From a virus, in IMG/VR virus record IMGVR_UViG_3300028127_000003: DNA of 64,000 nt; one strand, written 5' to 3'. A program made the position numbers and the translations under genes. Positions 6,254 through 64,000 of the stretch are shown one piece after another. Position 1 is the stretch's first letter. Every line of letters starts with the position of its first letter. The notes under the pieces are model-generated. The model was not told where the DNA came from and did no database searches. It saw only the letters and a list, made by a program, of their open reading frames with translations.

Positions 6254-9200
6254 TTATGCAATTATTTTAGAATGGACCCTCAAATTATATCGATACCCTG
6301 GTTTTTTATTATATATTAATCTGAAATTTAAAGGCTTTTCAGCGAAACTTCTGATTTCAAAATTAGTAAGTTCAAAAAACCCATCAGATGTAATATCTTC
6401 TATATTAGTTACGCTTTCCAATTCACTATATTTAGATTGATTTATATCATCACTTGGAAGATACCCTGCTATTTCAGTTCCATATACCTTTATTTGATCT
6501 ATTATAAATCTAGGTATAATGTTTTCTTCAATGTATATTGTTGAATCATCTTCCAATGTTGTTTTATCTCCATACGAATATTCAGAAGTAGCGTACCTTG
6601 AATAATACGCAGTTATATTTTCTTCTTTTAATTTTCTTACAATAGAATTAGCGATGTAGAAGTCAATGTGAATTTTTTGAGAATCTTCAAAAATATAAGC
6701 ACCATCATCTTCTCTTTCATCATATCTAATTACATCTAACGCTTGAAGAGATCTTACTCTTTTTAAATTGTATGAAGTTATATCATATTCATTTTTAACT
6801 TTCATTATTGTAGATGCAAAGAAAGATCTTTCTTCTATAGGGCTTAATGTTCCATGGACTTCCTTTGATCTATTTGTTCCACCAAAGGACCTTGTATAAT
6901 AGTCTTTAGCATATTTACTCTTAAATAGGTTTAAATCTTTTTTATCTATTGCTATTTCTCCAATTAATGGATATAGGGGTAGTTTATCTGATTCTTGACT
7001 TAGTTTAATAACCTTCGGCTGTAATTCATTTACTTTATGAAAGAAAAAGTTATTGATAATTCCGTAATTTTCATCAACTCCTAAATTAGAATTAAACATA
7101 CAATTTACTCCTATCAGTCTGTTGTATTTTTTCAACCTGTTCTCTTGCTCTTCATTAAAAGAATCTAAGGTATTTCTAAATTTATAATTGCCATAGGGAG
7201 ATGAAAAAGTTACAACATCTTTAAATAAAGGATCATAGCTACCGTTCATTCTTTTAAGAGTAGTGTAATATCCACCATCTTCTCTTGCAACCAGATTATA
7301 ACCTATATTATCATTATTTAATTTAAATGCCTTAGGTTTATCATCATCTATTTCTATGTCTAAAATTGAGGTTTTTACAAACTCAACACCGCTTTGTATT
7401 TCTAAACAAAACTGACCTGACTCTATATCTCCATTCTCTAGAATAGTAGTATACGTTATATCTCTATGTGTATTAATTCTATCTGCAAATCCAAATGAAG
7501 AAACGTCTTGTAATGCATTATCCCATGCCTTTTTACCACCGTTATAATATTTAAGAGGTATAATGTTAGGAATCGTAGTTGGATCGTCATAGGGTACATC
7601 TAAATCCTGATAATATTCTCCAGTCTGCTGATTTAATACCCATAGGTAAGGAAGACCTTTAACTATTATTTGTGAATCGTCTATCACCGAAACAACCTGT
7701 AAAGAATAAGTTTCATTTCCACTTTCAAATAATATATATGAATATTGCTCATCTATTTTAAAAATGTCTTGTGTAAATTTAGGTGTATTTTCGCCAACTG
7801 ATTGCACCGAAGCTTCCACTATCGTTGTAATTTCAGGATCTTCAGTATTCCATACTGTTACTGAGCTACCTCCAAACTCTAAGAAACCTCTAATATTACT
7901 ATCAAGTATTTCTCCTTCATTTAAAAGGTCATTTAAATTATATAACAAATATCTGTCTAATTGTGATATATCATTTGTAGGAACTTGTAAATTTATAAGA
8001 ATGCTAATAGTTTTAAATTTATTATTTCTTACAACCTCTATATCTACTCCCGTGTTGTTTATTTCGTCGTTAGAAGTATAGTTAAGTATTGTTGCAACTT
8101 TAAAATCATTTACATCAGACGAAGATTTAAAAGATATCGGGCTAGTCGATAAAAATTCAGTTCTATCTTTATAAATATATCTTAATCCTTTAAAAACTGT
8201 AGATGAAAAATTAACAGAATCTCCACCTTGCATTTTAGTGTACATTTTAAGTGGGGTTGAATTAACCCATTCACCGGGTTCAATTGTCGCTAGACCTGAG
8301 CTATCATTTTGATGAGCACCTGTATAGTTTAATATAGTTGAAAAATAATCAAAGTCAGTGCTTTTTAAATTTGCGACTAATTCTGAATAAGGCTTTTCGT
8401 ACCCTTCATAGACATAATCCATAAGTAATGGAATACTGCTAGGTTCTAATAAATATGTAGGAATATTATGTATATAGAAGTGTTCCATATTTAGTTTTTC
8501 AGCTGATCTTTCTGAAAGTTTAGTAATATCAGCTGATAAATTATTTACACCGAATGCTTCATTGGTGTTTAGGATGTATGATAAATTTCTAGAGTTAGTA
8601 GAATCTTTTAAATTAAATTTACATATAGTAGGTACGACTCTTGAATTAACACTCGTCTCCTTTAATGAGTTCTCCTTTAACCTATCATATTCATTAATGA
8701 TTTCTGTATCTATAAAATCACTTTCAACTATATCATCTCTAATAATACTAGATAAAGATTTAAACTTAAATAATTGACTATTACCAGGACCCGGTTTAAA
8801 TATAAAATCTTCATAGATATCAGCAACGTTAGACTGGTTGAAAAAATAATTAGCAGATGCTAAATCCTTCGTGATTATTTTAGTAAAGAACATCGTACCC
8901 ATTGATGTATAGATTACATCTTTTACCTCTGTCCATTCCTGTTCACCAGGATTACCTACCGTATCGACCTTTACAAAGTCTCCTTTTTTAATAAATTCAC
9001 TAACGTCTATATCATGTATTAATATATAAGGATCTGCTCCAGGAAAAGGTTGGTCATTGGCTTCGAGGACGTAAATGGAAGAAACATTTGCTACTCCAAA
9101 CGAAGCTTCATCATTCTTATATTGCATGCTCTCTAAAACTAAAAAGTCTATTTTAGAATTTGAAGTATCGTAGAAATCAAAATTAAAATCCTTGAAATCA

Positions 9201-11083
9201 TACGCTGAAAACTTTCCAAAGGGAGTATCATAGGTTTCATAACTTGTAATCACATTGTCCATTGAAAAAACCACCGGTTTTTGAAAAATAACTCTAAAGT
9301 TTTCTGAATAAGGATCTTTTATTATTTCTATAATCCTAACATAGTTATCCTTATTAAGTTCTTTAATAAAATACCCTACCTGTAGGTTTCCTATTTCGTT
9401 AGGGGATATTAATACACCCTGATTAACAGAACATCCACCAATCATAGTGTAAATTTCATAGTCTCCTAATTGCAATCCACCCGTAACAGTTCCACCTTCA
9501 CTTATAAAGTCGTTATACTTATTTGAAAATGCAAGATTTGCGTCGGTTGAACTTTGCATATCGATAAAGGGGTTCGGATTAGATGAACTAATACCAAATA
9601 CAGTTGTATTCTTATTCCTTCCCTGTGAGTAGTCATCTATGATCACCCTGTTCTTTATAGAGCTAGCATTATACGGTATAACTTCTGCATTTCTAATCGC
9701 CGCTGCAAGTGCTGCTGCTATTTGAGAAGTATTACCTATTGCAGAATATCTATTTTCTTGAAATGTTCCAATTGGAAGAGAAGTGTCTGCGATTAAAACA
9801 AAATCACCCAAATTAAAGTTTTCAATACTTATCTCGAGCAAGTCTCCTAAAAATACTTTATCATTATCAGAAGGCTGGTCTATTATATTTAATTCTATAA
9901 AACCATTAAATGGTGTTTTGTTTATTACGGGGGTGTTAAACTCTGTTTGTTTTTTATTTACAAAAATAGAAGAGTCTCCATTATATGATGTTAGTATTTG
10001 GTTTTTTTCTATTCTAGTCTTTCTAAATCTATTTAAAACGTTATGATATTTATTATTAATATCTTTTACCCATCCAAGAATCGGCTGGGTGTAATCCTTT
10101 ATAGATGGTAATTTATCTAATTCGTCAGACGATGAATTGCTTATATCTAAATTTAAGTGTCCTATTGAATTTACAGAATTGACAACTACAGTTCCTTCTT
10201 GATGTTCATCTACGAAAATTCCAAAATATCTATAAACATTATAGTCGTCGGCTTCATTATCGTCAAATAAAAATTCTAAATTAATTATATTGTGAGAAAC
10301 AATTCCGTTTCTTTCAAAGCTAGTTGTTAATGTATTATTAGCTAAAATTTCGGGAAGGTCTTCTTTAACGTAATCATCATCTATATAATCTGACTTTTCA
10401 ACAAAGCCACCTAACATTACGTCTATTCCGTTAAAGGAAGTAGGATCATCCAGTTCAAAATTAAAATCAATATGCGACTTAGGAATTAAGGGATTAGATA
10501 CGTGACTATTTAGATATCTCCCTAGCTTAGAGTTATTAGTCATATCATACGATTTTATTAAAGTCGCATTAGATAACATTTCTTGAATTCTAGAATTTTG
10601 ACTAGGATCATCTTCTAAAGATTTTTCTTTAAAATCTACATCTTTAATTCTATAAATTATAAATTTTTCAGGAACACTTTCTTCTAACCATATTGGAGCA
10701 AATATTCTATATTGCTCGTCATAGGCCTTTGTATAATTGAATGAAGCTCCGTAATTATATAGGTTTTCATATTGTGTAGAATAGTCTTTAGAAACACTTA
10801 GATCTGTAAATTCCCTACCGACCTGATATCTTTCATCTTTACTTAATCTTCCGTAAAACTGAGCAACGTCCCTACAATATTCACCTGAACTAGAAATAGG
10901 ATATTTCTGATATTCATACTGCGATAGAGTTCTATTTGCCTTGATTGAGCTTAAATAGATATCTCCCTCTTCGTCAGTAATTAATTTGACATTAGAAGTT
11001 AACTTGGGGTTAGTTCTTAATAGGGCAAAGGACTTATCCTTATACGAAATACCTTCTGCTTGTGTGTTAATCGTTATCGCCAT
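6254..11083 (-). CDS. Very large hypothetical virion/baseplate-region protein (1609 aa)
   Basis: Long ORF in the structural module with a late-type motif upstream; no recognised motif. Confidence 0.6.
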   Translation of the reverse strand: MAITINTQAEGISYKDKSFALLRTNPKLTSNVKLITDEEGDIYLSSIKANRTLSQYEYQKYPISSSGEYCRDVAQFYGRLSKDERYQVGREFTDLSVSKDYSTQYENLYNYGASFNYTKAYDEQYRIFAPIWLEESVPEKFIIYRIKDVDFKEKSLEDDPSQNSRIQEMLSNATLIKSYDMTNNSKLGRYLNSHVSNPLIPKSHIDFNFELDDPTSFNGIDVMLGGFVEKSDYIDDDYVKEDLPEILANNTLTTSFERNGIVSHNIINLEFLFDDNEADDYNVYRYFGIFVDEHQEGTVVVNSVNSIGHLNLDISNSSSDELDKLPSIKDYTQPILGWVKDINNKYHNVLNRFRKTRIEKNQILTSYNGDSSIFVNKKQTEFNTPVINKTPFNGFIELNIIDQPSDNDKVFLGDLLEISIENFNLGDFVLIADTSLPIGTFQENRYSAIGNTSQIAAALAAAIRNAEVIPYNASSIKNRVIIDDYSQGRNKNTTVFGISSSNPNPFIDMQSSTDANLAFSNKYNDFISEGGTVTGGLQLGDYEIYTMIGGCSVNQGVLISPNEIGNLQVGYFIKELNKDNYVRIIEIIKDPYSENFRVIFQKPVVFSMDNVITSYETYDTPFGKFSAYDFKDFNFDFYDTSNSKIDFLVLESMQYKNDEASFGVANVSSIYVLEANDQPFPGADPYILIHDIDVSEFIKKGDFVKVDTVGNPGEQEWTEVKDVIYTSMGTMFFTKIITKDLASANYFFNQSNVADIYEDFIFKPGPGNSQLFKFKSLSSIIRDDIVESDFIDTEIINEYDRLKENSLKETSVNSRVVPTICKFNLKDSTNSRNLSYILNTNEAFGVNNLSADITKLSERSAEKLNMEHFYIHNIPTYLLEPSSIPLLMDYVYEGYEKPYSELVANLKSTDFDYFSTILNYTGAHQNDSSGLATIEPGEWVNSTPLKMYTKMQGGDSVNFSSTVFKGLRYIYKDRTEFLSTSPISFKSSSDVNDFKVATILNYTSNDEINNTGVDIEVVRNNKFKTISILINLQVPTNDISQLDRYLLYNLNDLLNEGEILDSNIRGFLEFGGSSVTVWNTEDPEITTIVEASVQSVGENTPKFTQDIFKIDEQYSYILFESGNETYSLQVVSVIDDSQIIVKGLPYLWVLNQQTGEYYQDLDVPYDDPTTIPNIIPLKYYNGGKKAWDNALQDVSSFGFADRINTHRDITYTTILENGDIESGQFCLEIQSGVEFVKTSILDIEIDDDKPKAFKLNNDNIGYNLVAREDGGYYTTLKRMNGSYDPLFKDVVTFSSPYGNYKFRNTLDSFNEEQENRLKKYNRLIGVNCMFNSNLGVDENYGIINNFFFHKVNELQPKVIKLSQESDKLPLYPLIGEIAIDKKDLNLFKSKYAKDYYTRSFGGTNRSKEVHGTLSPIEERSFFASTIMKVKNEYDITSYNLKRVRSLQALDVIRYDEREDDGAYIFEDSQKIHIDFYIANSIVRKLKEENITAYYSRYATSEYSYGDKTTLEDDSTIYIEENIIPRFIIDQIKVYGTEIAGYLPSDDINQSKYSELESVTNIEDITSDGFFELTNFEIRSFAEKPLNFRLIYNKKPGYRYNLRVHSKIIA
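6310..6317 (-). promoter_or_regulatory. Candidate late promoter RATATATA
   Basis: AATATATA 58 nt before ATG 6251, inside the upstream gene end. Confidence 0.4.
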
Positions 11084-46198: not shown

Positions 46199-46497
46199 AT
46201 ATTGCTTATGATTTTTTTAAGTTCATGGCATCTTTCATATTCTTCTTGTTCTGCGAAATATTTGATAACCGTTTCTAGTGCTGCTATTTTTTCTTCTTTA
46301 GGAGAATTATTGTTTAATGCTCCCATTTCATTTTCAATTATAGCCTTATAAATTAAGTCCATCATTATCTCTTTGGATGATGATTTCAATTTTTCAATAA
46401 ACGCGATTGATTCTACGCTGTTGTTAACTTCAAATTCTGGATTATTTCTATTGGTATCTGAATTATCCCATTCGTCAAAATCTGGTAAATCATTCAT
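46192..46497 (-). CDS. Small protein with C-terminal UVR-like motif
   Basis: Ends YFAEQEEYERCHELKKI. Confidence 0.6.
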   Translation of the reverse strand: MNDLPDFDEWDNSDTNRNNPEFEVNNSVESIAFIEKLKSSSKEIMMDLIYKAIIENEMGALNNNSPKEEKIAALETVIKYFAEQEEYERCHELKKIISNIC

Positions 46498-47290
46498 TGT
46501 CTATTTCTTTTATTTTTTTTATTAGTTCTATTTGTGAATCTTTAAGGGGTGGATTAAATGCATTTAACTTCACCATAAGGTTACCATAAGTATTCATACT
46601 ATATATCGGGAATCCTTTACCACTTATTCTTAATATCTTATTATTCTGTGAATTTGGAGGAACATTTACCTTTATTTTATAAAAAGGCGTATTGATTTCT
46701 ATTTCAGTTCCTAGAATCATATCATAAAAAGAAACATTTGCATCTACATAGATGTCATTTCCGTTTAATATAATCCTATCATCATATTTTAAATTAATTA
46801 TAATGATTAGATCTCCTTTGGGTGCAGATGAATTAGCAGGATGAGGTTGACCTTTTCCACTAATTTTTAACTTCATACCTTCATAAACTCCTTTAGGTAT
46901 ATTAACGTTTAGTTTTTTAGAACCTATGTCTACTCTCTTTTGGGTTCCATGATAAGATTCTTCTAGGGTTATTGTCATTCTAACCGTAACGTCTCTTCCT
47001 TTTGAAGAGGAACCAAACGCATCATTGAACATATCACTGAAGGATCCTTCTCCGTTTTGAAACCAACTATGAAATGGATTGTCAGAAGACTTATATCCTA
47101 ATTCAATATCATACTTTCTTTTTCTGTTCTCGTCAGATAAAACCTCGTATGCTGTAACTATTTCTTTAAAGGAAGACTCATCCCCTTCGACGGTATCGGG
47201 ATGATATTGCTTTGCTAGTTTACGATAGGCCTTCTTAATCTCGGCTTGGCTTGCTGACTTGTCTATCTGCAGCAGTTCGTAGTAGTTCAT
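46490..47290 (-). CDS. dnaJ: DnaJ/CbpA-type J-domain co-chaperone (no zinc finger)
   Basis: NYYELLQI...EIKKAYRKLAKQYHPD, AYEVLSD, C-terminal LKISGKG, GDLII, LRISGKGFP. Confidence 0.92.
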   Translation of the reverse strand: MNYYELLQIDKSASQAEIKKAYRKLAKQYHPDTVEGDESSFKEIVTAYEVLSDENRKRKYDIELGYKSSDNPFHSWFQNGEGSFSDMFNDAFGSSSKGRDVTVRMTITLEESYHGTQKRVDIGSKKLNVNIPKGVYEGMKLKISGKGQPHPANSSAPKGDLIIIINLKYDDRIILNGNDIYVDANVSFYDMILGTEIEINTPFYKIKVNVPPNSQNNKILRISGKGFPIYSMNTYGNLMVKLNAFNPPLKDSQIELIKKIKEIDNE

Positions 47291-48836: not shown

Positions 48837-49302
48837 ATATTTTCTTCTTTAATCTCATTAAGTATACTACTCTAGAGAAATGATAAAAGGAAAGAATAGG
48901 TATCTGTAACACTTCAAACAAGAATAAATTCTGTTCAGTGTTTATAAAGAGTGTTGGATATAATATTGCAGATATTATTCCAAAGATTTTAAATCTTTTA
49001 TCAAAGAGCATGATCCATGTCGATGACATAAAAAATAGAATAGCAGATATATTATGTATTGTAGGGTAATTTGCAACGCTAAAGCTTGCTATGATTATTA
49101 ATAAGAATGCCGGTATTTTCCATTCAATAGAACGATGAAGCCATAATCCTAATGAAACTCCTATTGTTAATAAAGGGAATAAGATTGGTTTTAATTGATG
49201 ATAATCACTATAACTATCCTCTATGCCTAGGATTAATGGCAGACACACTGTATATAATATTGCGTAAATACACAGTGCAAATCGTAACCATAATCTATTC
49301 AT
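48835..49302 (-). CDS. Multi-pass membrane protein
   Basis: Five to six hydrophobic segments; SYSDYH and HNISAILFF motifs. Confidence 0.6.
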   Translation of the reverse strand: MNRLWLRFALCIYAILYTVCLPLILGIEDSYSDYHQLKPILFPLLTIGVSLGLWLHRSIEWKIPAFLLIIIASFSVANYPTIHNISAILFFMSSTWIMLFDKRFKIFGIISAILYPTLFINTEQNLFLFEVLQIPILSFYHFSRVVYLMRLKKKI

Positions 49303-49328
49303 ACTTGGAAGTTTATTAACTATACTTA

Positions 49329-49355
49329 ACTATACACTTCCATTTGGAATTGTTT
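49329..49355 (-). promoter_or_regulatory. Bipartite promoter motif AAACWWTT-N13-TATARY
   Basis: AAACAATT-CCAAATGGAAGTG-TATAGT, upstream of ATG 49302. Confidence 0.7.
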
Positions 49356-49358
49356 CAA

Positions 49359-49583
49359 TTAAAAGTGTCCGTGTTCTTTAACACGTCTTATCATAAGATA
49401 TGTGTTATATGATACGTTAATTTCTGCATATCCTCCTGTAATTGTAGAAGGACAAGATTCTCTAGAAATCCAATAGCTAGGTGGTTCTTTAATTCTTTCT
49501 GTTATAAAGTCAAACAGTTTGTCAATGTCCATGTGATGAACCCATAAGTTCACATGCATACAAGTCATATCCGGATATGCCAT
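49359..49583 (-). CDS. Hypothetical protein
   Basis: 74-aa ORF in the run. Confidence 0.5.
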   Translation of the reverse strand: MAYPDMTCMHVNLWVHHMDIDKLFDFITERIKEPPSYWISRESCPSTITGGYAEINVSYNTYLMIRRVKEHGHF

Positions 49584-49586
49584 AAT

Positions 49587-50540
49587 TTATTCTTTTATTT
49601 CGAATCGTTCGCTGTCAAGTTCTATAGTTTTTTTATCTAAATCATTAGATAATTTTGTTAGGGCCTTGTCAGTATCTTTGTTTACTTCTCTTCCGTAAAA
49701 GTCTTTAAATATTTTACGGTATATTTGCACAGTAGAATCATAAGGAACTCCAGGTTGAGAATTACTTTCTATAATATACAATTTTCCTTCTTGATCTTCC
49801 ATTATATCAAAACATATATATGGTAAATCTTTAAACTTATCACAGAATTTTTCTATTAGTGTTTTAAATTTTTCAGGAAGAGTTGTAATATCTCTTTTGA
49901 TATATTTAAAATTCATTTCTTCTTTTCCGTCACCATCACCTGATTTTGCTTTATCATTTAATGGTTCTCTTTCCATCCAAAAGAAAGCATCTCCTTTAAA
50001 GTTAATTATTCTATGCTCTGATTTCTTATCTACGAATTCGGAATATACGTCAAATTTAGAATGATCAGCTTTATCCCAATCTTCCTGAGATTTAAAAACC
50101 TGAATTCCAATACCTGAATGTCCTTCAGCTGGCTTTGCAATTAATGGAAAACCAATTTCTAAAGCTTCTTTCTCGTCATGGCATGTTTGTGGAATGTTTT
50201 CATCTCCATCGACTATTTTATGAAACTCTGCCTTAGATCCAGATTGCTTAATGAATTCTGGTCTATTATATACATTTTCTTTTTTAACTAATCCTTCCTT
50301 TAAAAGGGTTTCAACTACTCCTGAATTATAGGTTAATATAGGATAGTCTGGATTAATATCTATGTCTTTATAATTGTCTTTATTGATTTGTATAAAGAAA
50401 TTATCTGACGCAAATCCTTTATAAGACCACCACCTGTGACCTGAGTCGGGATCAATTGCTAGATAAACTTTAAAAAGATCATTAGTATCTTCGTTTAGGC
50501 TTTCGTTAATAAATTGGTTGAATGATTGTATTTGCTTCAT
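49587..50540 (-). CDS. ATP-grasp fold protein with capsid-targeting-like N-terminus
   Basis: MKQIQSFNQFINE start; SKAEFH, FPLIAKPAEGHSGIGI, YSEFVD..SEHR, ICFDIM...LYIIESNSQPG. Confidence 0.8.
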   Translation of the reverse strand: MKQIQSFNQFINESLNEDTNDLFKVYLAIDPDSGHRWWSYKGFASDNFFIQINKDNYKDIDINPDYPILTYNSGVVETLLKEGLVKKENVYNRPEFIKQSGSKAEFHKIVDGDENIPQTCHDEKEALEIGFPLIAKPAEGHSGIGIQVFKSQEDWDKADHSKFDVYSEFVDKKSEHRIINFKGDAFFWMEREPLNDKAKSGDGDGKEEMNFKYIKRDITTLPEKFKTLIEKFCDKFKDLPYICFDIMEDQEGKLYIIESNSQPGVPYDSTVQIYRKIFKDFYGREVNKDTDKALTKLSNDLDKKTIELDSERFEIKE

Positions 50541-50547
50541 ATTCTAT

Positions 50548-51165
50548 TTATCCACTCATCTTACAGAAACTTACAGTAATATACCTTGTTCCTGAAAAAA
50601 TAGGCTTTGCACCGTGTCTATGTGTAATTGCACCTGGGTGTAAAGCTGCCATTCCAACTCTAGGAGGACTAATATTTGCCTTATATAATGGGAAATAAGT
50701 TCCACCTCCTGTAAAATCTTCATTCATTCTAACAACAGTTGTTAAATGGCTATTATCATGGTGAAGAGAAAGGTGCGCTTGTGTTTCTGTAGTATACTTT
50801 ACAATAAATGTTTCATCTGACATAGAATTCCACTGCTTTCCTTCTAAAGTCCAGAACCATATTCCTAATGGCCTAACAAATTCGTTAAGAACCTTTGAGT
50901 AAATTTCATTCATCCATACTTTGTCAATGAGCATGTCGGTTGTTGGATAAAATTCATGTCTATCTACTGTCCATTCTCCTTCAGTTTCACATAGTTCAAT
51001 TAGATCTTTACAAAACTGTTCTTTAAATAAAGGAAATACTAAAACACTCGGAGCCGCTTCGTCAACTATGAGTTCATATTCTCCTTTTCTTAAAAGGGGA
51101 TCGATGTATTTGTCACACCATGCATCCCAATCGCTTGCATCTAAAATTTCTACGTATTTTCCCAT
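50548..51165 (-). CDS. 2OG-Fe(II) dioxygenase of the procollagen lysyl hydroxylase (PLOD C-terminal) type
   Basis: VFPLF...FC..LI, YPTTD, FIVKY...Q..L.LHHD.S..T....N..F.GGGT.F, G.A.LHPG..TH.H...P..SGTRYI.VSF parallel the PLOD catalytic domain. Confidence 0.85.
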   Translation of the reverse strand: MGKYVEILDASDWDAWCDKYIDPLLRKGEYELIVDEAAPSVLVFPLFKEQFCKDLIELCETEGEWTVDRHEFYPTTDMLIDKVWMNEIYSKVLNEFVRPLGIWFWTLEGKQWNSMSDETFIVKYTTETQAHLSLHHDNSHLTTVVRMNEDFTGGGTYFPLYKANISPPRVGMAALHPGAITHRHGAKPIFSGTRYITVSFCKMSG

Positions 51166-53039
51166 TATTTTACTTTTTCTAATTTAGTTACTTTTTTTTC
51201 AACTCCTGATTTTTCAGCGTATGTTTCGTTAGCAACTCCTTCTTCTTCTCCATATCTTGACTCTGCTGAGATAGGATAGTCAGGGCTTTCATTATATGCC
51301 CAATCTTCTATTCCTAATTCAATAAATCTAGCGTTGATTTGTTCATTATAATATTGTGCTATTGTTCTAACTCTTCTTTGAATGTCTGCTCTTGATAAAT
51401 CATGAGTGTTTCTTCCACCTTGATTATTATAGAGAAATTGAATATAGCTTAGTTTAGGTATTTTACATATCTTAGAATATAGGAAGCTTCTGATCACTAA
51501 TTCAAAATCATCTGCAATTGTTAGACTTCTGTTATGTCCTCCTATTTCAAAATAAGTAGATCTTCTCCATGCTCTAACGTGATTTGGAACTCCTACAATA
51601 TGTCTGATTGTTTTTGGATTAATATTCTGTTGATTAGCAGGTGACAACATTCTACCTTCATACTCTTCTTCTCTATAAGAACCATATCCTAATGCAAACC
51701 CTTCTCCATATCTTTGATTTTCCCACTCTTCATTTACCTCGGCAGTATCTCCATAAAACATACCACAATCAGGATGTGCCTGTGCAGCATTATGTAAATC
51801 TTCTGCACATGTTTTAACCAATAAGTCATCATGGTCTAATTCTGCTAGAATATATCCTTTAGCAAGAGAACAACATCTGTATTTAGATTCTCCAATACAT
51901 CCTCCTGATTTTTCTCTAAAATCATACACCTTTACTCTTGGATCTACTAACGCAATTTCTTCTGCTATCTTTAAAGTTTTACCTCCATCGGTGGAATCAT
52001 TTACTAAAACCCATTCCCAGTTATTATACGTCTGATCTCTTACGGATCTATATGTGTTCCATAACTTTTCACCAGTATTATATATAGGCGTAAAGAATGA
52101 AATCATCTGATCATCTTCTAGGTTAGAAGGAGATAGAATAGAATTCATTGCTACGGAATATGCAGTGTTTCCTATATTTTCCGTGTTCTCAGAATTAAAC
52201 CACCTTTTTCTAAATTGGAGAGGAAGAGAAGCTAGGTTAGGAAACTCTTTCCATGATTCTCCATTTGTAATAATTGCATCAGGATTAAACGACGTAACTG
52301 CGTTAATTACTTCACTATCGTCTTCTAAGTATTTAACGTCTAATTCATCTGCTTCATACGATAAATATTTTATAGACTTTAATTCTGGCTTAGTTTTTCC
52401 TATATAAATTATTTTAGGTATTTTTGCACTTGGTACTTTTTCTAAATAATTGTAGTGGCATAAAACCTTGTCAATCCATACGAATGAATCACCATGTGTT
52501 TTTAATACTTCTTCTATAAAGAAACCGTCTGCTGCATAATTTGCACTAAACGAATGAGTATCAAATATGCTTCTATTAATAACCATCTGTGCAATGTCAA
52601 TTTTCTGAAATGCAGTATTTTCACGACTAGCTACTCTAATTTCTTGTCCGGTAAAATCTCTACCTGCAACTAATTGAGAAACGATATGAACCTGTGCAAT
52701 TGGAAGATTCTTTATACTCGCTTTAATAGTTTTGTAAAAGTCTTCGTGTATAATGTTATCATCATCTAGTAAATAGATCCAACCTGATTTGATTGTTCTA
52801 ATAATATCAGAAACTTCAGGATATAATAATCCTCCTCTTTGTCCTTTTACAAAATGTAATTTGACATTGACAGTATCTGTTAAGTTCGAGAGAACCTCTG
52901 CATCAATATCCTTTAATGCTCCTGTATCAAATACAATGTGCCAATTTACTGTTACTCCCTTAGGCGCATTTAATACTCCTTCTTTAATTGTTAAAAGGTT
53001 ACTTGTTCTGGTACACCTTGTAATAATATTAATCTTCAT
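51165..53039 (-). CDS. Two-domain GT-A/GT2 glycosyltransferase
   Basis: N-domain WIYLLDDDN; C-domain ISFFTPIYNT, WEWVLVNDS, LAELDHDD, DDFELVIR. Confidence 0.85.
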   Translation of the reverse strand: MKINIITRCTRTSNLLTIKEGVLNAPKGVTVNWHIVFDTGALKDIDAEVLSNLTDTVNVKLHFVKGQRGGLLYPEVSDIIRTIKSGWIYLLDDDNIIHEDFYKTIKASIKNLPIAQVHIVSQLVAGRDFTGQEIRVASRENTAFQKIDIAQMVINRSIFDTHSFSANYAADGFFIEEVLKTHGDSFVWIDKVLCHYNYLEKVPSAKIPKIIYIGKTKPELKSIKYLSYEADELDVKYLEDDSEVINAVTSFNPDAIITNGESWKEFPNLASLPLQFRKRWFNSENTENIGNTAYSVAMNSILSPSNLEDDQMISFFTPIYNTGEKLWNTYRSVRDQTYNNWEWVLVNDSTDGGKTLKIAEEIALVDPRVKVYDFREKSGGCIGESKYRCCSLAKGYILAELDHDDLLVKTCAEDLHNAAQAHPDCGMFYGDTAEVNEEWENQRYGEGFALGYGSYREEEYEGRMLSPANQQNINPKTIRHIVGVPNHVRAWRRSTYFEIGGHNRSLTIADDFELVIRSFLYSKICKIPKLSYIQFLYNNQGGRNTHDLSRADIQRRVRTIAQYYNEQINARFIELGIEDWAYNESPDYPISAESRYGEEEGVANETYAEKSGVEKKVTKLEKVK

Positions 53040-53053
53040 ATTTATATTTGTTT

Positions 53054-53986
53054 TTATACGTCAAAAAAGAACATGTGAAAAAATCTAGCATTGTCAATTG
53101 CATCTCCAAAATACTGAGTCGCAGCGTGGATATTTTTAGCATTAAACAAGACTAATCTATTATACACATTTCCTACTTCATCTATTTTTTCAAAATTAGA
53201 TCCATCGTAAAAATTCATTTCATTACTATTACCCTTGAATGCATCTATGTATGCTTGGGTTTTTCTTTTATCGTCATCGAATGTATAATCACCCGTGACT
53301 TTACTTCTATAGAACGCAGTTCCAGATGTAGGTGGAGCGTCAGGTGTTAAATATACCATTGCTGCATAAGTTTGATTATCCACGTGATAAACAATCTGTT
53401 GATCTGCTGTACAAAATTGAAATATTCCGTTAGCATACCTGTCGTGATTCCAATTGAATATTGGTTTTCCTATAATTTCTTCTAGTTTTTCTTTAGTTCC
53501 ATCTAAGATAAATCTTTCATTTGCTCTTTGGCCCTTGTGATAATCGGAAGGTGTAAATTCTAAATGGTTCATTGCCCATTCTCTTACAAGGTCAGGATCA
53601 TTATAAAAATTATCTACTACTATAACATCCTTTGATGTATTTGCAAATCCTGAATGATACGATAACCAGTGTCCGATTGGACCTATTGCAGTTTCTCCAA
53701 TACTAGTATGGATGACTAGTGTTTTTAGTTTTTTATCAAAAGGAACCTCAATAGTAAATGACATATTCTGATTAGTAAGCTGATTTGAATATACTTCCAT
53801 TACGTCTTGCCTATCACCTAAAAATTGAACTTTAAGAGGTTCATTTGACATTGAAAAGCCTAAAGCTTCTCCGCCTATTAATCCAACCCATCCATTAAGA
53901 GTATATGTGTCTGTATTCTTAGTTACGCTTTCCACATAGAATTTTACATTCTTGTTAAACGTATCATGTTTGATTTTATTATCCAT
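53054..53986 (-). CDS. 2OG-Fe(II) dioxygenase (DUF6445-like) with N-terminal extra domain
   Basis: VIVVDNFYNDPD, YHVD, AAMVYLTPDAP..SGT.FY, YNRLVLF...IHAA, R.F.MFFF. Confidence 0.75.
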   Translation of the reverse strand: MDNKIKHDTFNKNVKFYVESVTKNTDTYTLNGWVGLIGGEALGFSMSNEPLKVQFLGDRQDVMEVYSNQLTNQNMSFTIEVPFDKKLKTLVIHTSIGETAIGPIGHWLSYHSGFANTSKDVIVVDNFYNDPDLVREWAMNHLEFTPSDYHKGQRANERFILDGTKEKLEEIIGKPIFNWNHDRYANGIFQFCTADQQIVYHVDNQTYAAMVYLTPDAPPTSGTAFYRSKVTGDYTFDDDKRKTQAYIDAFKGNSNEMNFYDGSNFEKIDEVGNVYNRLVLFNAKNIHAATQYFGDAIDNARFFHMFFFDV

Positions 53987-54007
53987 CGATTGTGTTCTAT
54001 AATATTA

Positions 54008-54034
54008 GTTATACTTAGATATTTTAAATTGTTT
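54008..54034 (-). promoter_or_regulatory. Bipartite promoter motif AAACWWTT-N13-TATARY
   Basis: AAACAATT-TAAAATATCTAAG-TATAAC, upstream of the dioxygenase-GT-PLOD operon. Confidence 0.7.
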
Positions 54035-54068
54035 ACTAAGTGTAATAAGATAATAAGTTATTACAATC

Positions 54069-54076
54069 TATATATC
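54069..54076 (-). promoter_or_regulatory. Candidate late promoter RATATATA
   Basis: GATATATA immediately after the collagen terminator, upstream of the dioxygenase-GT-PLOD operon, in tandem with the bipartite motif. Confidence 0.55.
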
Positions 54077-54080
54077 ACAT

Positions 54081-54110
54081 AAAAAAAGGGTCCTCTTTCG
54101 AGGACCCTTT
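54081..54110 (-). terminator. Intrinsic terminator after the collagen fibre gene
   Basis: AAAGGGTCCTC-GAAA-GAGGACCCTTT plus T-run; GNRA loop. Confidence 0.88.
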
Positions 54111-54134
54111 CTAAAATTATCTTGATGATTTAAA

Positions 54135-59693
<5,559 letters not shown>

Positions 59694-59713
59694 GTTTTAA
59701 TAATTTATTTTTT

Positions 59714-60490
59714 TTAGTCGTCTAGATTACTTTTGTCGTATACTACTTCAAACTGATCAGTTCCAGCAAGCTCATAACCTGCAAGAGTTCCGTTCCAGTA
59801 AAGTGTATCTCCAGCATCTAAGTCAGAAGCAGGAACAGCAGTTGCACCACCGTCTCTTGAGAAATATACGTCTCCGTTTCTATCATTATAAGATTCGTCA
59901 AGTGCTATACCGTTTAAGAATACTTGAACTGTTGAATCTTGGAAAGGAGTATACGTTAGTGTAAGTCCTGTTGATGAGTAATTACCTGAAGTTACAGCAG
60001 AGAACGAAGTCTGTGTGAATTCTTCTGGTTGAATTAGGTCTGTTGGCGACTGCGATGGTCTCCATGGAAGAACATGACCCACTGTTTCTGTTAATGCTTG
60101 TAAAACAGGATTGCTGTATGCAAAACCTGGATCACCAGTATTAACGTAATCTTCTAAAGTACCGTTACCTGAGTTATCTACAACGTAGAAATCTCCGGGA
60201 ACTAACTGGTCCAATTTAGGCCATGCTGAAACGTTAATAGTTCCAACTTGCACAGCGATAAAATTGTCCGCGTCTACAATAGATTCGATGATTAATCTTC
60301 CTAGCTTGTTAGCAGTGCTTGAATCAGCTAACACCCATCTAGAACCCACATAAGCTATAACAACTCCAGCAGAAAAACCGTGGTCTTCCTGTGTGTAAGC
60401 TGATTTAAGCGAACCTGATTCAATGCTGGTGTTAATAAGATCAAGAGCAGCCTGTAAGCCGTCAATTTGCTTGATTTTAATTAATGACAT
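59714..60490 (-). CDS. Fibre-associated structural/adaptor protein
   Basis: HGFSAG.V...W.LAD beta-clip-like segment and C-terminal VQVFLNG domain; co-transcribed with the collagen gene. Confidence 0.55.
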   Translation of the reverse strand: MSLIKIKQIDGLQAALDLINTSIESGSLKSAYTQEDHGFSAGVVIAYVGSRWVLADSSTANKLGRLIIESIVDADNFIAVQVGTINVSAWPKLDQLVPGDFYVVDNSGNGTLEDYVNTGDPGFAYSNPVLQALTETVGHVLPWRPSQSPTDLIQPEEFTQTSFSAVTSGNYSSTGLTLTYTPFQDSTVQVFLNGIALDESYNDRNGDVYFSRDGGATAVPASDLDAGDTLYWNGTLAGYELAGTDQFEVVYDKSNLDD

Positions 60491-60545
60491 GAATAGTTAC
60501 ATTTTTTTTTATTTATTTTAAATGTGGAATAATTCCACTCAATCT

Positions 60546-60553
60546 TATATATT
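60546..60553 (-). promoter_or_regulatory. Candidate late promoter RATATATA
   Basis: AATATATA 55 nt before ATG 60490 (adaptor-collagen unit). Confidence 0.5.
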
Positions 60554-60609
60554 ATAAATTGATGGGATAAAGGTCCCAGAATCTATAGTATAAGATATTA
60601 TTTTACGTA

Positions 60610-61380
60610 TTAAAAATCCCACTTATCTGTAAAGTGACATCTTACGTATGTTGGTCGGTTCATTACTGCTCCGCCTTTATGATTTTCTCTGAATCTTACG
60701 TTGAAATCTGAATCTTCACTTACGTTACCCCAAGTATCTCTCCATAAAACAGATGCAGATGGTTTATGCATAAACAACCAAGGACTCATTACTACTAAAC
60801 CTTCCTTTATTCTTGTTATGTTCCACTTTCCTTCAACATCTGGAAGTTCTTCACCATATTCTGTAGAATCTTCAAATGTTTTATCGTCTTTAAATTTCAT
60901 TACTTCGTTATCGTACCAAGATCTGTTAATCCACCAATTAGCGTCAGGGTTTTTATTAAACTCTATCATTAGGTGTAGTGTATGTTCTTCTAATAACATA
61001 TCGTCTGAATCCATATATGTAATTAAATTTCCAGTTGCGGCTCCTACTCCTACTCTACGAGGAAAACCTCTATAATATTTGTTGCCTTCTTCGTTTTGCA
61101 TATATGTACTCATTTCTTTTGAGTTTCTAGAAACGTATATTAATCTTATGTTATCTTCAGTTTGAAAATGAGCATCATATAGTGACTTTGTTTCCATGCA
61201 ATTGTCTGCTACTATTATTAATTCACAGTTTTTATATAATTGATTTTGAAAACTCTGGACTGCTCTTAAAAATTTAGAATGTGAATCTTTCCTAGATCCT
61301 GGATAATTACCAAGATATGATTGCATGATAATACTAATCTTTGGCTTTGCAGCCGCTTCAATTACTTCTTTTAATTCCAT
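60610..61380 (-). CDS. GT2-family glycosyltransferase
   Basis: KISIIMQSY, CELIIVADN, RRVGVGAATGNLITYMDSDD, SEDSDF. Confidence 0.82.
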   Translation of the reverse strand: MELKEVIEAAAKPKISIIMQSYLGNYPGSRKDSHSKFLRAVQSFQNQLYKNCELIIVADNCMETKSLYDAHFQTEDNIRLIYVSRNSKEMSTYMQNEEGNKYYRGFPRRVGVGAATGNLITYMDSDDMLLEEHTLHLMIEFNKNPDANWWINRSWYDNEVMKFKDDKTFEDSTEYGEELPDVEGKWNITRIKEGLVVMSPWLFMHKPSASVLWRDTWGNVSEDSDFNVRFRENHKGGAVMNRPTYVRCHFTDKWDF

Positions 61381-61392
61381 TATTTATTATGT

Positions 61393-62580
61393 TTATTTAT
61401 ATAGGTTTGTTGACCAGTCATATTCGTTTGATAGAGCATGTTTTCCTGGTTCAAAAATATTCTCTATTAGTTTTTTATATGTATCTACGATGTTAGGATT
61501 TGTTGTAAGATATCTTGAAAGAACCTTTGTGCTTTTTGCTGTATATTCCTTTTCTATCTCATCATGATGATTTAATACATTCTCTAACATCTTTGCAGCT
61601 GACACTGTATCGAATCCTTTATAATAATACCCTGCATCCTTTATCATTGTTGCGTTATGAACTAAAGGATATCCAAAATAAAGAGCGTCTAAATATGCAT
61701 AGTTTAAAGGATTATCCCATTGATGTGAAAGAACTATATCCGTTTTCTCAGAAAGAAAATTAGTTACTGGGTACCTTGAGCACATTTTTAATTTACCGGA
61801 ATGAGTTACATCTAAGTGTTTAATGGAACTAATAAAGTATTTACTAGATAATAATCTTTTACCACTTCCTACCCAAAATTCATTGAACGCCTTTTTACCC
61901 TTTTTTCTGTATAGTTCTTCTACCATCATGATAAGAGGCATACAATATTTAACTACATTCATATTAGGTTCCATTGAAGATAGGTTCATATCTTCTGCAT
62001 TCTTGCCTCCTTTATAGAATGCGTCTTTCATACCATTTCTGACGTTTTTAGAATTTTCTTCTTTTATAAACTTAGGACTCCATACAAATGGAACCACTTT
62101 AACCTTGTCAGCAGAAAGCCTTCCCATTGTTTGATAGTATGATCTATTTTGATATTCCTGCTGTGGAATAAACCATGCTTCATCGTGGCCATGCGTCCAA
62201 TTACTTACAGATTCTTTAGAATCAAATAAGACTCTTTCCATATCTATAATATAATTATTACCGCAAAAGTATTTAATAATCTTAATTTTAGGATTCTTTT
62301 TTCTAACGGCGACTGTTTGCTCGGTACTAAATGAAGTTCCTAGAAGTATTAATAAATCCGTTGAATTTACTTTATCTGCATATTTATAAATAGGATATTT
62401 AGAAGTGTCCCAATCTACCTTTGACAGATCTTTAACTTTATTACTAGTGTCTAACGCATATACACTATGATCTCCTATTTCAGAAAGAGTTTCAATTAAA
62501 TTTAATACATTTAATTTGATTCCATTTATCCAAAGAGATTCATTATCCTGTTGTAATCCTAGTGTAATTCCAATGTTCAT
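61393..62580 (-). CDS. DUF2827-like putative glycosyltransferase (start moved to MNIGIT)
   Basis: SLWINGI, PFVWSP, MEPN.NVVK, SHQWDNPLNY.YLDALY.GYPLVHN; the ORF-track extension lies in a terminator. Confidence 0.7.
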   Translation of the reverse strand: MNIGITLGLQQDNESLWINGIKLNVLNLIETLSEIGDHSVYALDTSNKVKDLSKVDWDTSKYPIYKYADKVNSTDLLILLGTSFSTEQTVAVRKKNPKIKIIKYFCGNNYIIDMERVLFDSKESVSNWTHGHDEAWFIPQQEYQNRSYYQTMGRLSADKVKVVPFVWSPKFIKEENSKNVRNGMKDAFYKGGKNAEDMNLSSMEPNMNVVKYCMPLIMMVEELYRKKGKKAFNEFWVGSGKRLLSSKYFISSIKHLDVTHSGKLKMCSRYPVTNFLSEKTDIVLSHQWDNPLNYAYLDALYFGYPLVHNATMIKDAGYYYKGFDTVSAAKMLENVLNHHDEIEKEYTAKSTKVLSRYLTTNPNIVDTYKKLIENIFEPGKHALSNEYDWSTNLYK

Positions 62581-62603
62581 GTTAAACCGATATTTTGTTT
62601 TAC

Positions 62604-62611
62604 TATATATT
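62604..62611 (-). promoter_or_regulatory. Candidate late promoter RATATATA
   Basis: AATATATA just after a terminator, 23 nt before ATG 62580. Confidence 0.58.
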
Positions 62612-62617
62612 TTAAAT

Positions 62618-62646
62618 AAAAAAGGCTCCTCTTCCGAGGAGCCTTT
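62618..62646 (-). terminator. Intrinsic terminator after the coiled-coil fibre gene
   Basis: AAAGGCTCCTC-GGAA-GAGGAGCCTTT plus T-run; GNRA loop. Confidence 0.88.
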
Positions 62647-62689
62647 AATCAATTAAGCATTAAGCTAATAATTTAAACCGAAGTTTAGA

Positions 62690-64000
62690 TTATAGTTTTA
62701 TACCCATAACTTGAACTTTGTCCTTAGCATCAACGTCATAAGCTAATAAGCCTGTGAAATCGATATCAGTTCCACCTGTACATCTGAAGTCAACGAATAC
62801 ACCGTTTACATAAACAGTTAAATCATCGTTAGTTCCGAATGCAACTGGCTGAGGTAAAGTAAATAAGTTAGTTGCAGTAAATACTGCAGTTTGTCTTAGG
62901 TACGTACCACCTTCTTCAACAGCTACTTCTAATGAATCGATAGATGCGTTTATAACATTTACCTCTCCGTTAGTTGTTGCTATCTCAGCAGCTAATTCAG
63001 CAGATAAAGCAGATTCAACAGAACCAGCTCTTGTGATTTCAGCAGCTAAGTCACCTTCAACACCTAATACTCTAGTGTCGATTGAAGTGATGTCACCAGC
63101 TAATTCACCGTCAACAACCTCTAAAGAATTAACTGAAGCAGTTAATAATAAGTTGTCAGCGTCGTTAGCGTCGATCTGTGCTTTTAACTTAGCGTCTTCA
63201 CCAGCTCTATCTTCTTTTTCTTGCTCGATAGCAATCGCTAGATTGTTATCAACAGCTTCTAAAGAATCGATAGATCTGTCTTGTGCGATTTGCTCAGCGT
63301 TAGTTGAAGCGATTTCAGCAGCTAAAGCAACTTCTAAAGAATCAACAGATGCGTCAGTTCTTACTACGAATGCAGCAAAAGCATCATCATTTTCAGTATC
63401 AACAGAGTTGATTAAAGAAACGATTTCAGCGAATGAATCTTTGTCAGCAGTTGAAGCTTCTAAGATTGCATCGATTCTACCTTTTTCTGTAGCGATGTCA
63501 GATGCTAATTCACCATCAACAACCTCTAAAGAGTTTACAGATAATGTTAAGTTAGCGTTGTCTAAATCGTTAGCGTCGATTCTAGAACCTAATGCTAAAT
63601 CAGCAGCAGCTCTTAATCTTGCTTCCTCTTCGATAGAAGATGATAAACCAGCGTCAGCAGCTTCTAAAGAATCAATAGATGCGTTTTGAACAGCTTGCTC
63701 AGCAGCAGTTTCAGCGATCTCAGCAGATAATTCTGCAGATATCTTACCTTCCATTGCAGTTGCTCTGTCGATTTCAGCTTGTAAGTCACCTTCAACACCA
63801 GATACTCTAGTGTCTAATGAAGTGATGTTACCAGCAAAACCATTGTCAACAACTTCTAATGAATCGATAGATGCGTTAACATTGATAAAATCAGCGTTAG
63901 TTGCAGCGATCTCTGCGTTTAAAGCAGCTTCAATAGCATTTTCTCTACCAGTTGCTCTTTCGATTTCAGAAGCTAAGTCACCTTCAACACCTAATACTCT
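62690..64000 (-). CDS. Long acidic coiled-coil repeat fibre protein, 5' end outside the window
   Basis: Frame open from 64000 (RVLGVEGDLASEIERA...); recurring ASIDSLE and AEIxRA repeats; C-terminal LTVYVNGV domain. Confidence 0.8.
   Translation of the reverse strand, partial: RVLGVEGDLASEIERATGRENAIEAALNAEIAATNADFINVNASIDSLEVVDNGFAGNITSLDTRVSGVEGDLQAEIDRATAMEGKISAELSAEIAETAAEQAVQNASIDSLEAADAGLSSSIEEEARLRAAADLALGSRIDANDLDNANLTLSVNSLEVVDGELASDIATEKGRIDAILEASTADKDSFAEIVSLINSVDTENDDAFAAFVVRTDASVDSLEVALAAEIASTNAEQIAQDRSIDSLEAVDNNLAIAIEQEKEDRAGEDAKLKAQIDANDADNLLLTASVNSLEVVDGELAGDITSIDTRVLGVEGDLAAEITRAGSVESALSAELAAEIATTNGEVNVINASIDSLEVAVEEGGTYLRQTAVFTATNLFTLPQPVAFGTNDDLTVYVNGVFVDFRCTGGTDIDFTGLLAYDVDAKDKVQVMGIKL

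Follow-up and report, generated by a model that had tools for sequence, protein, structure and literature searches.

In a 64,000-nucleotide stretch of IMG/VR virus record IMGVR_UViG_3300028127_000003 (here called the window; bases 50915-114914 of a 133-kb viral contig with a CheckV completeness of 44%), a gene encoding a 205-aa PLOD-type lysyl hydroxylase (LH) stands near the gene of a giant collagen-like fiber, among genes for a second dioxygenase and several glycosyltransferases (GTs). Almost all genes of the window are on the minus strand, and its G+C content is about 32%, rising to about 42% within the fiber gene. A gp6-like baseplate wedge protein is encoded, as are PhoH, DnaJ, RNase HII, UvdE, and a PolB-type exonuclease, and by these baseplate and core genes we mark the source as, presumably, a large uncultured marine myovirus-like phage. 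Megablast of the locus against cultured and deposited phages returned no DNA match, and since cultured phages hold only distant relatives of LH and of the 624-aa two-domain glycosyltransferase encoded next to it (GT624), no isolate is at hand. Contigs and loci used for comparison carry L-numbers. An earlier sequence-only reading of this region had proposed a collagen hydroxylation and glycosylation system built from a PLOD-like enzyme, a second dioxygenase, and a two-domain GT in a coupled operon on one side of a lysine-rich collagen and a GT2 and a DUF2827-like GT on the other. Every gene that it listed was found on the minus strand where it had placed it, and the searches described below bore out the individual assignments; its inventory was incomplete in that it missed an ATP-grasp gene next to LH and a nearby GT25 gene outside the window.

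The identity of LH was examined by a phmmer search of the PDB, which retrieved human LH3 (E value of 2e-25; query residues 16 to 201 against chain residues 517 to 713) and mimivirus L230 (1.5e-18), while the next family, bacterial prolyl 4-hydroxylases (P4H), reached 0.29 at best. Homology thus runs over the full length of the LH domain, as the sequence-only reading had claimed, and is better than to other 2-oxoglutarate (2OG) oxygenases; LH does not cluster with the dioxygenases that act on DNA or small molecules. Its only Pfam match, an OGFOD2-like one, is below the cutoff. The Fe(II)/2OG residues H135, D137, H184, and R194 align to the 'HHD', 'THYH', and 'GTRY' segments of LH3, where we take them to correspond to H667, D669, H719, and R729, and they are invariant in 28 LH homologs. 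The open reading frame (ORF) is intact, and the protein is 91 to 100% identical in five other contigs from different samples. In tblastn against cultured phages, only relatives of at most 30% identity were seen, annotated as hypothetical or as 2OG oxygenase. These results support LH being a true homolog of the collagen lysyl hydroxylases rather than a generic P4H or a nucleic acid or small-molecule dioxygenase. PHROG labels the protein a 'DNA endonuclease', which is not credible given the PDB and motif evidence.

The fiber has the lysine pattern that such an enzyme would need. Its collagen runs span residues 24 to 464, 467 to 796, and 913 to 1692, with a globular knee at 797 to 912 between them, and among its 521 G-X-Y triplets lysine occupies Y in 119 and X in only 9 (binomial P of 1e-25), mostly at Y as first noticed. 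These lysines typically stand in the context G-[A/L/T]-K-G-D-Q. Proline is scarce (25 of 1852 residues, none at Y), and the other Y positions are filled by threonine (137) and glutamine (157). The two arms have opposite net charges, -67 for the N arm and +49 for the C arm. An S74 chaperone domain closes the C terminus at residues 1753 to 1807, after 1692 mostly collagen-repeat residues, as in trimeric fibrous proteins; this domain is the usual C-terminal end of trimeric phage fibers and spikes. The knee domain (window positions 56958-57303) has no Pfam match and is 23 to 60% identical to internal domains of collagen-like fibers in many distant LH-bearing loci (L010, L015, L049, L054, L059, L065, and L074).

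A profile search for LH relatives yielded 194 viral contigs, from which 80 loci were fetched. Across lineages the LH domain is mostly the C terminus of a longer protein, and every longer LH ORF tested had a GT25-LH (about 430 to 500 aa) or GT4-GT25-LH (about 740 to 830 aa) architecture. The LH studied here is 46 to 60% identical to the LH domains of these fused relatives, whose GT25 part matches human COLGALT1 (procollagen galactosyltransferase 1; E value of 1e-10); the LH part of one of them matches L230 at 1.5e-23. A collagen-like ORF was found within 10 kb of LH in 48 of 81 loci and in 13 of 22 clusters formed at 80% identity, mostly directly upstream on the same strand and ending 0.05 to 2 kb before the LH gene. 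Several loci scored as negative merely lack upstream sequence, and three of the five negatives with full flanks have a collagen gene 11 to 18 kb away on the same contig. As a control, 108 loci in 880 kb were selected for a PhoH-type motif. A collagen-like ORF was present in a single one of them, on a contig that is a relative of this phage, so that the rate among unrelated control loci is about 0 of 107.

Lysine placement follows the same division. In the collagens of 17 LH-locus clusters (dereplicated loci), lysine makes up 1 to 55% of Y positions and exceeds 18% in 11 of the 17; of the 16 LH-less clusters, 12 have none and 14 stay at or below 6.5%. One LH-less contig, with a rated completeness of 100%, lacks lysine at Y in all of its 249 collagen triplets. 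The counts support the statement that Y-position lysine is largely confined to the collagens of LH-bearing loci.

The GT25 gene lies about 3.8 kb past the window end, between genes for ClpP and thymidylate synthase, about 8 kb upstream of the fiber gene and about 17 kb from LH. Its product scores 67.3 bits with Pfam Glyco_transf_25 (cutoff of 24), and its best PDB match is COLGALT1 (E value of 5e-11), with an 'EDD' motif aligned to the 'EDD' of COLGALT1. By gathering score, best solved relative, and acidic motif it is therefore a predicted COLGALT1-like member of GT25. In the relatives LH and GT25 are coupled by fusion, whereas here they are separate genes some 17 kb apart, and GT25 persists in close relatives that have no LH. 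On its sequence it is the likeliest hydroxylysine glycosyltransferase of this phage. In L197, a relative with neither LH nor collagen, only a 102-aa gene stands between the ClpP and thymidylate synthase positions where GT25 sits here. The phage has an unusually rich proteostasis set, in which ClpP and a full DnaJ are joined by a double AAA+ protein of ClpB/ClpA-like type, besides thymidylate synthase and a LOG/lysine-decarboxylase-like protein (L264:5050-5718, 6872-7771, and 7799-9802, outside the window, and window positions 46490-47290).

The stop codon of GT624 overlaps the LH start codon (ATGA), and gaps of 14 and 7 nt separate the neighboring genes, which agrees with the coupled operon first proposed. 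Besides its Pfam match, GT624 has a weak NCBIfam match to the HpsE GT2 at residues 23 to 106. Its DxD motifs, D92-D94 and D402/D404/D405, are invariant in 37 homologs. The AlphaFold2 (AF2) model (predicted local distance difference test [pLDDT] score of 80.6) has two Rossmann-like GT-A modules, and among the Foldseek matches listed its nearest folds are K4CP (E value of 7e-20 over about 600 columns), PmHS2, LARGE1, RmlT, and TarP. The model thus predicts a tandem of GT-A folds that both carry a DxD motif, of the type known from K4CP, heparosan synthase, and LARGE1. We also considered a split LH3, in which GT624 would represent the GT and AC domains of that enzyme. LH3 was not found by sequence and is absent among the Foldseek matches listed, which leaves only an analogy of layout. 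No homology was found between GT624 and the GT4-GT25 part of the fused LH relatives, and tblastn against cultured phages gave only partial matches of at most 35% identity. The GT624 family comprises 1340 proteins, with at least 59% identity over the full length among the 120 listed, and the gene belongs to the syntenic core of the phage lineage, near the exonuclease, DnaJ, PhoH, and RNase HII genes.

The DUF6445 protein has H201-x-D203...H287 and R277/R301 invariant in 45 homologs. In its AF2 model (pLDDT of 90.5) the C-terminal domain is a double-stranded β-helix (DSBH), nearest to OGFOD1, PHD2, HygX, and BesD (probability of 1.0; E values of 6e-5 to 4e-4). The DSBH, the HxD...H triad, and the basic residue together place it, as modeled, in the 2OG/Fe(II) dioxygenase superfamily. 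A PHROG label of 'minor coat protein' is not credible in the light of motif and fold. The order collagen, DUF6445, GT624 is seen in at least 7 lineages, and the DUF6445-GT624 pair, found throughout the phage lineage, often lies directly downstream of collagens without lysine (L220, L223, L233, and L238) and sometimes has no collagen within 10 kb. In relatives of 600 to 1800 aa (P0236, P0244, P0246, P0293, P0328, and P0333) the DUF6445 domain is C terminal, preceded by GT2, GT17, GT47/RXYLT1-like, DXD-sugar-binding, or methyltransferase modules. Its sequence context suggests a general role as an oxygenase coupled to glycosyltransfer.

The features of the locus are collected in Table 1. Because a hairpin follows the fiber gene, a promoter-like motif precedes DUF6445, and a near-identical hairpin precedes DUF2827, the layout suggests two transcription units, DUF2827-GT2-258aa-fiber and DUF6445-GT624-LH-ATP-grasp. 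The two hairpins, which bracket the first unit, share the form AAAGG[G/C]TCCTCG[A/G]AAGAGGA[C/G]CCTTTTTT. The ATG at 62580 is the likely start of DUF2827, because the upstream hairpin lies inside the longer ORF that starts at a TTG.

Table 1. Features of the fiber locus and the GT25 gene beyond it (window positions unless a contig or locus is named)
Feature	Position	Strand	Basis and remarks
ATP-grasp-like ligase, 317 aa, last gene of modification operon	49587-50540	-	Weak Pfam/NCBIfam ATP-grasp matches, all below cutoffs
Stand-alone PLOD/L230-type collagen lysyl-hydroxylase catalytic domain (LH), 205 aa	50548-51165	-	PDB phmmer, invariant residues
Bifunctional-type glycosyltransferase GT624, 624 aa, two predicted GT-A domains	51165-53039	-	Pfam Glycos_transf_2 at residues 314-455, E 6e-18
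DUF6445 protein, 310 aa, N-terminal beta domain and predicted C-terminal 2OG/Fe(II) dioxygenase domain	53054-53986	-	Pfam DUF6445 E 4e-15
Putative promoter-like motif AAACAATT-N13-TATAAC	54008-54034	-	Sequence reading; ahead of modification operon (DUF6445 side)
Terminator-like G+C hairpin with T run, AAAGGGTCCTCGAAAGAGGACCCTTTTTTT	54081-54110	-	Sequence reading; directly after fiber gene; not listed by consensus scan
Collagen-like virion fiber, 1852 aa	54135-59693	-	Pfam Collagen E 2e-235; Peptidase_S74 E 9e-16 at residues 1753-1807
258-aa protein directly upstream of fiber gene	59714-60490	-	No Pfam, PHROG, or NCBIfam match
GT2-family glycosyltransferase, 256 aa	60610-61380	-	Pfam Glycos_transf_2 E 2.5e-8; weak NCBIfam PglI, TuaG
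DUF2827 protein, about 395 aa, putative protein glycosyltransferase	61393-62580	-	Pfam DUF2827 E 1e-90, full model length
Terminator-like hairpin	62621-62646	-	Sole terminator-like site in consensus scan of 49000-64000; ends upstream unit, just before DUF2827 unit
Stand-alone GT25, COLGALT1-like, 279 aa	G000:C1:118746-119585 = L264:5747-6586	-	Pfam and PDB; about 3.8 kb past window end

Close homologs of the GT2 protein (87 to 98% identity) occur only within the clade of this phage, with a 39% match elsewhere in L005, L202, and L204. Atlas clusters for the DUF2827 protein contain only DUF2827 proteins, mostly from Uroviricota (the Atlas record begins at residue 25), and a sequence search of the PDB with it gave no informative match. 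A 2026 preprint (bioRxiv 10.64898/2026.01.22.700529) proposes that DUF2827 proteins are glycosyltransferases of the cytoplasm with a genetic link to trimeric autotransporter adhesins, and by analogy this link fits a role on a trimeric phage fiber. The 258-aa gene accompanies the fiber in sister contigs at 96 to 100% identity, and its product is possibly a fiber adaptor. For the ATP-grasp protein the PDB sequence search was uninformative (best match, D-Ala-D-Ala ligase at an E value of 6e-4), and one of its weak NCBIfam matches is to a ribosomal-peptide ATP-grasp maturase. Homologs of 26 to 29% identity lie about 450 bp downstream of LH in L007, L009, L015, L018, L020, and L021, and a copy of 65% identity lies about 8 kb downstream in L035, L036, and L039. 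It is conceivable that this enzyme ligates or cross-links the Lys/Asp-rich fiber.

Farther away in the window, at about 2495-2599 and 6024-6134 on the minus strand, there are short sub-threshold Collagen matches (E values of 6e-6 and 2e-6) in open frames of 1161 and 1169 aa, and these predicted structural proteins may contain short G-X-Y stretches. Elsewhere on the contig, outside the window and far from the fiber locus, a 200-aa frame encodes another P4H-type 2OG-FeII_Oxy_3 oxygenase (G000:C1:12863-13141).

Close sister phages separate LH from the rest of the locus. In L204, L205, L206, and L211, whose GT624 is 89 to 95% identical, the K-rich fiber (lysine in 137 of 481 Y positions), DUF6445, GT624, and ATP-grasp are all kept; DUF2827, GT2, and the 258-aa gene are retained as well in L205, L206, and L211, and a GT25 of 99% identity is present in two of these, L205 and L211. 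Alignment shows LH as a clean gene-sized presence/absence indel, with only the first bases of its ORF retained in L204. Since these LH-less sisters keep the fiber and the transferases, LH is dispensable and accessory, and the flanking transferases cannot depend on hydroxylysine. The proposal that the second dioxygenase and the three glycosyltransferases form one hydroxylysine pathway with LH is therefore not supported in that form, all the more because the DUF6445-GT624 pair occurs beside lysine-free collagens. A further arrangement was seen in L195/L196 (ENA contigs) and L207, which have the same synteny and a GT of 60 to 64% identity. There, four tandem K-rich collagen genes of about 740 to 840 aa each are followed by DUF6445, the double GT, and then a P4H-like 2OG-FeII_Oxy_3 gene exactly at the LH position.

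Homologies, catalytic residues, folds, fusions, synteny, co-occurrence statistics, and the indel are what the analysis establishes. From these we propose, with a probability of roughly 0.6, that the fiber is modified by two routes, one converting lysine to hydroxylysine and then to its hexoside and the other independent of LH. On this sequence evidence the phage probably makes an animal-style modified collagen. The substrate would be the 1852-aa fiber, trimerizing with the help of its C-terminal S74 chaperone. In the first route, before the triple helix forms, LH, with Fe(II), 2-oxoglutarate, and O2, would hydroxylate the lysines at Y in the 119 G-X-K-G sites, and the stand-alone GT25 would then add a hexose to hydroxylysine. 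This would parallel mimivirus L230 and the presumed action of the fused GT25-LH and GT4-GT25-LH proteins of marine phages. In the second route, DUF6445 and GT624, probably with DUF2827 and GT2, may act on other residues of the fiber, by hydroxylation and/or glycosylation, or assemble a repeating glycan. The LH route would be an accessory one, which natural sister phages have lost or never gained.

Several observations weigh against this proposal. LH is absent from L204, L205, L206, and L211, both at the syntenic site and across the available fragments (17 to 26% complete), so that in these sisters GT25 either has another acceptor or relies on an LH encoded elsewhere. The K-rich collagens of L195 and L207 go with a P4H-like oxygenase in place of LH. 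Two LH-bearing lineages show no collagen on fragments that are 44 to 52% complete, the collagens of some LH lineages are poor in lysine (L025 and L037, 1 to 2.5% at Y), and GT624 is also present without collagen within 10 kb (L197 and L208-L219). The Mann-Whitney comparison of lysine at Y between LH-bearing and LH-less clusters (P of 1e-5) overstates independence, because the LH-less set is one phage lineage. Every substrate and chemical product in the proposal is deduced from sequence.

The explanation that competes best keeps LH as a fiber hydroxylase and assigns GT624/DUF6445, GT2, and DUF2827 to the synthesis or alteration of a polysaccharide, for instance a glycan of the host envelope or capsule or some other virion decoration, so that they would stand near the fiber by lineage synteny only. 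GT624 is most like the polymerases of glycosaminoglycans and matriglycan and belongs to the syntenic core whether or not collagen genes are present, and DUF6445 resembles sugar and small-molecule oxygenases (HygX and BesD) and is found fused to glycosyltransferases and methyltransferases. We nevertheless consider this explanation unlikely, because the lineages that share the collagen-DUF6445-GT624 order are diverged; DUF2827, GT2, and the 258-aa gene form one transcription unit with the fiber between the two terminator hairpins; DUF2827 is elsewhere linked to trimeric fibrous adhesins; and LARGE1, among the nearest folds, builds its polymer on a protein. A bolder scheme, which we would call quite unlikely, has both sets of enzymes make a proteoglycan-like fiber: LH and GT25 would form hydroxylysine-hexose, GT624 would extend a repeating-disaccharide polymer primed by DUF6445, and ATP-grasp would possibly cross-link or extend it, with the LH indel switching that route between strains and perhaps tuning adsorption or shielding. 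If true, such a fiber would be a bacterial-virus counterpart of animal extracellular-matrix chemistry.

Decidedly improbable, in our judgment, is that LH acts on lysine in some other phage or host protein and that its adjacency to collagen reflects a shared hypervariable accessory region. That would explain why LH is dispensable in sisters with the same fiber and why some LH lineages have lysine-poor or no visible collagens, and marine phages do carry many 2OG oxygenases of unknown substrate (PMC2938197). The homology, however, is specific to collagen LH enzymes with X-K-G substrates (PMC9614988), the LH domain is fused to COLGALT-type GT25, the collagen ORF is usually directly upstream on the same strand against a near-zero control rate, and lysine at Y tracks the presence of LH. 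It is very improbable that LH does nothing in this phage, its gene being a recent acquisition or in decay: the clean gene-sized indel, with only the first ORF bases left in L204, would fit, but the ORF is unbroken and has kept all catalytic residues, copies of at least 91% identity recur in five other contigs from different samples, and LH is translationally coupled to GT624.

Lysine hydroxylation and glycosylation are generally lacking in prokaryotic collagens and have been counted as an animal trait, to which mimivirus L230 is the sole viral exception (PMC9614988, PMC8968730). Iyer et al. in 2010 predicted that collagen-like proteins of bacteria undergo hydroxylation and sulfation, by other dioxygenase families (PMC2938197). 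Our literature searches turned up no description of a lysyl hydroxylase, of hydroxylysine, or of a COLGALT-type/GT25 enzyme in tailed phages, in agreement with the sequence-only reading, which knew of no such pathway there. The type of system is thus known from animals and mimivirus; what is new is its predicted occurrence in bacteriophages, the split architecture, the LH-plus/LH-minus polymorphism, and a second dioxygenase-transferase module. For that module, which is independent of LH and lies beside collagen fibers, the locus gives evidence, and it is the first genomic context for DUF6445 and phage DUF2827 proteins.

If the two-route proposal is true, an LH family tied to fibers with lysine at Y in hundreds of marine phage contigs would shift both the origin and the spread of this chemistry to the viruses of prokaryotes. 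It would also add a new layer to fiber biology, with stability achieved without hydroxyproline and with glycan shielding or host recognition, and it would supply compact, bacterially expressed LH and GT enzymes for modified recombinant collagens. The natural pair of LH-plus and LH-minus phages, otherwise near identical, is a ready-made experiment.

The closest known system is mimivirus L230, a bifunctional LH and hydroxylysine glucosyltransferase (LH domain, PDB 6ax6), which is likewise virus encoded and homologous to the phage LH over its full length. L230 acts on the collagen-like proteins of its own virus, which are proline poor with lysine at Y, and it resembles the phage GT25-LH fusions in having a GLT25D1-like GT as its N-terminal part (PMC9614988). 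The present system differs in belonging to a tailed phage, in its stand-alone 205-aa LH and separate GT25 gene, and in its putative substrate, an S74 tail-fiber-type protein. Human LH3/PLOD3 and COLGALT1, which convert lysine to hydroxylysine, galactosyl-hydroxylysine, and glucosyl-galactosyl-hydroxylysine, are the best PDB matches of the phage LH and GT25, and the X-K-G context with lysine at Y is alike. Unlike LH3, the phage LH has neither an LH3-type GT nor an accessory domain, and the GT624 coupled to it is not LH3-like by sequence or fold. The setting also differs, being the bacterial cytoplasm rather than the endoplasmic reticulum, and the phage fiber is nearly free of proline.

Among phages, the fused GT25-LH and GT4-GT25-LH proteins of marine contigs likewise have their LH domain beside collagen-like fiber genes; here, in contrast, LH is unfused, coupled to a GT2-type double transferase, unlinked from GT25, and polymorphic among close relatives. 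For GT624 the models to compare are the K4 chondroitin polymerase of Escherichia coli, Pasteurella heparosan synthase 2, and human LARGE1, with which it appears to share tandem GT-A domains with DxD motifs (E values of 7e-20 to 1e-10), a likeness of fold only, since identity is 9 to 14% and the overall template modeling (TM) score is about 0.3 because the domain orientation differs. The trimeric adhesins linked to DUF2827 are prokaryotic trimeric fibrous proteins with nearby-encoded glycosylation enzymes, in a role that is itself proposed, and the fiber described here is likewise accompanied by DUF2827. The BclA-type collagen-like proteins of Bacillus anthracis are trimeric and O-glycosylated by enzymes encoded nearby, and the phage fiber is likewise rich in threonine at Y (137 of 521).

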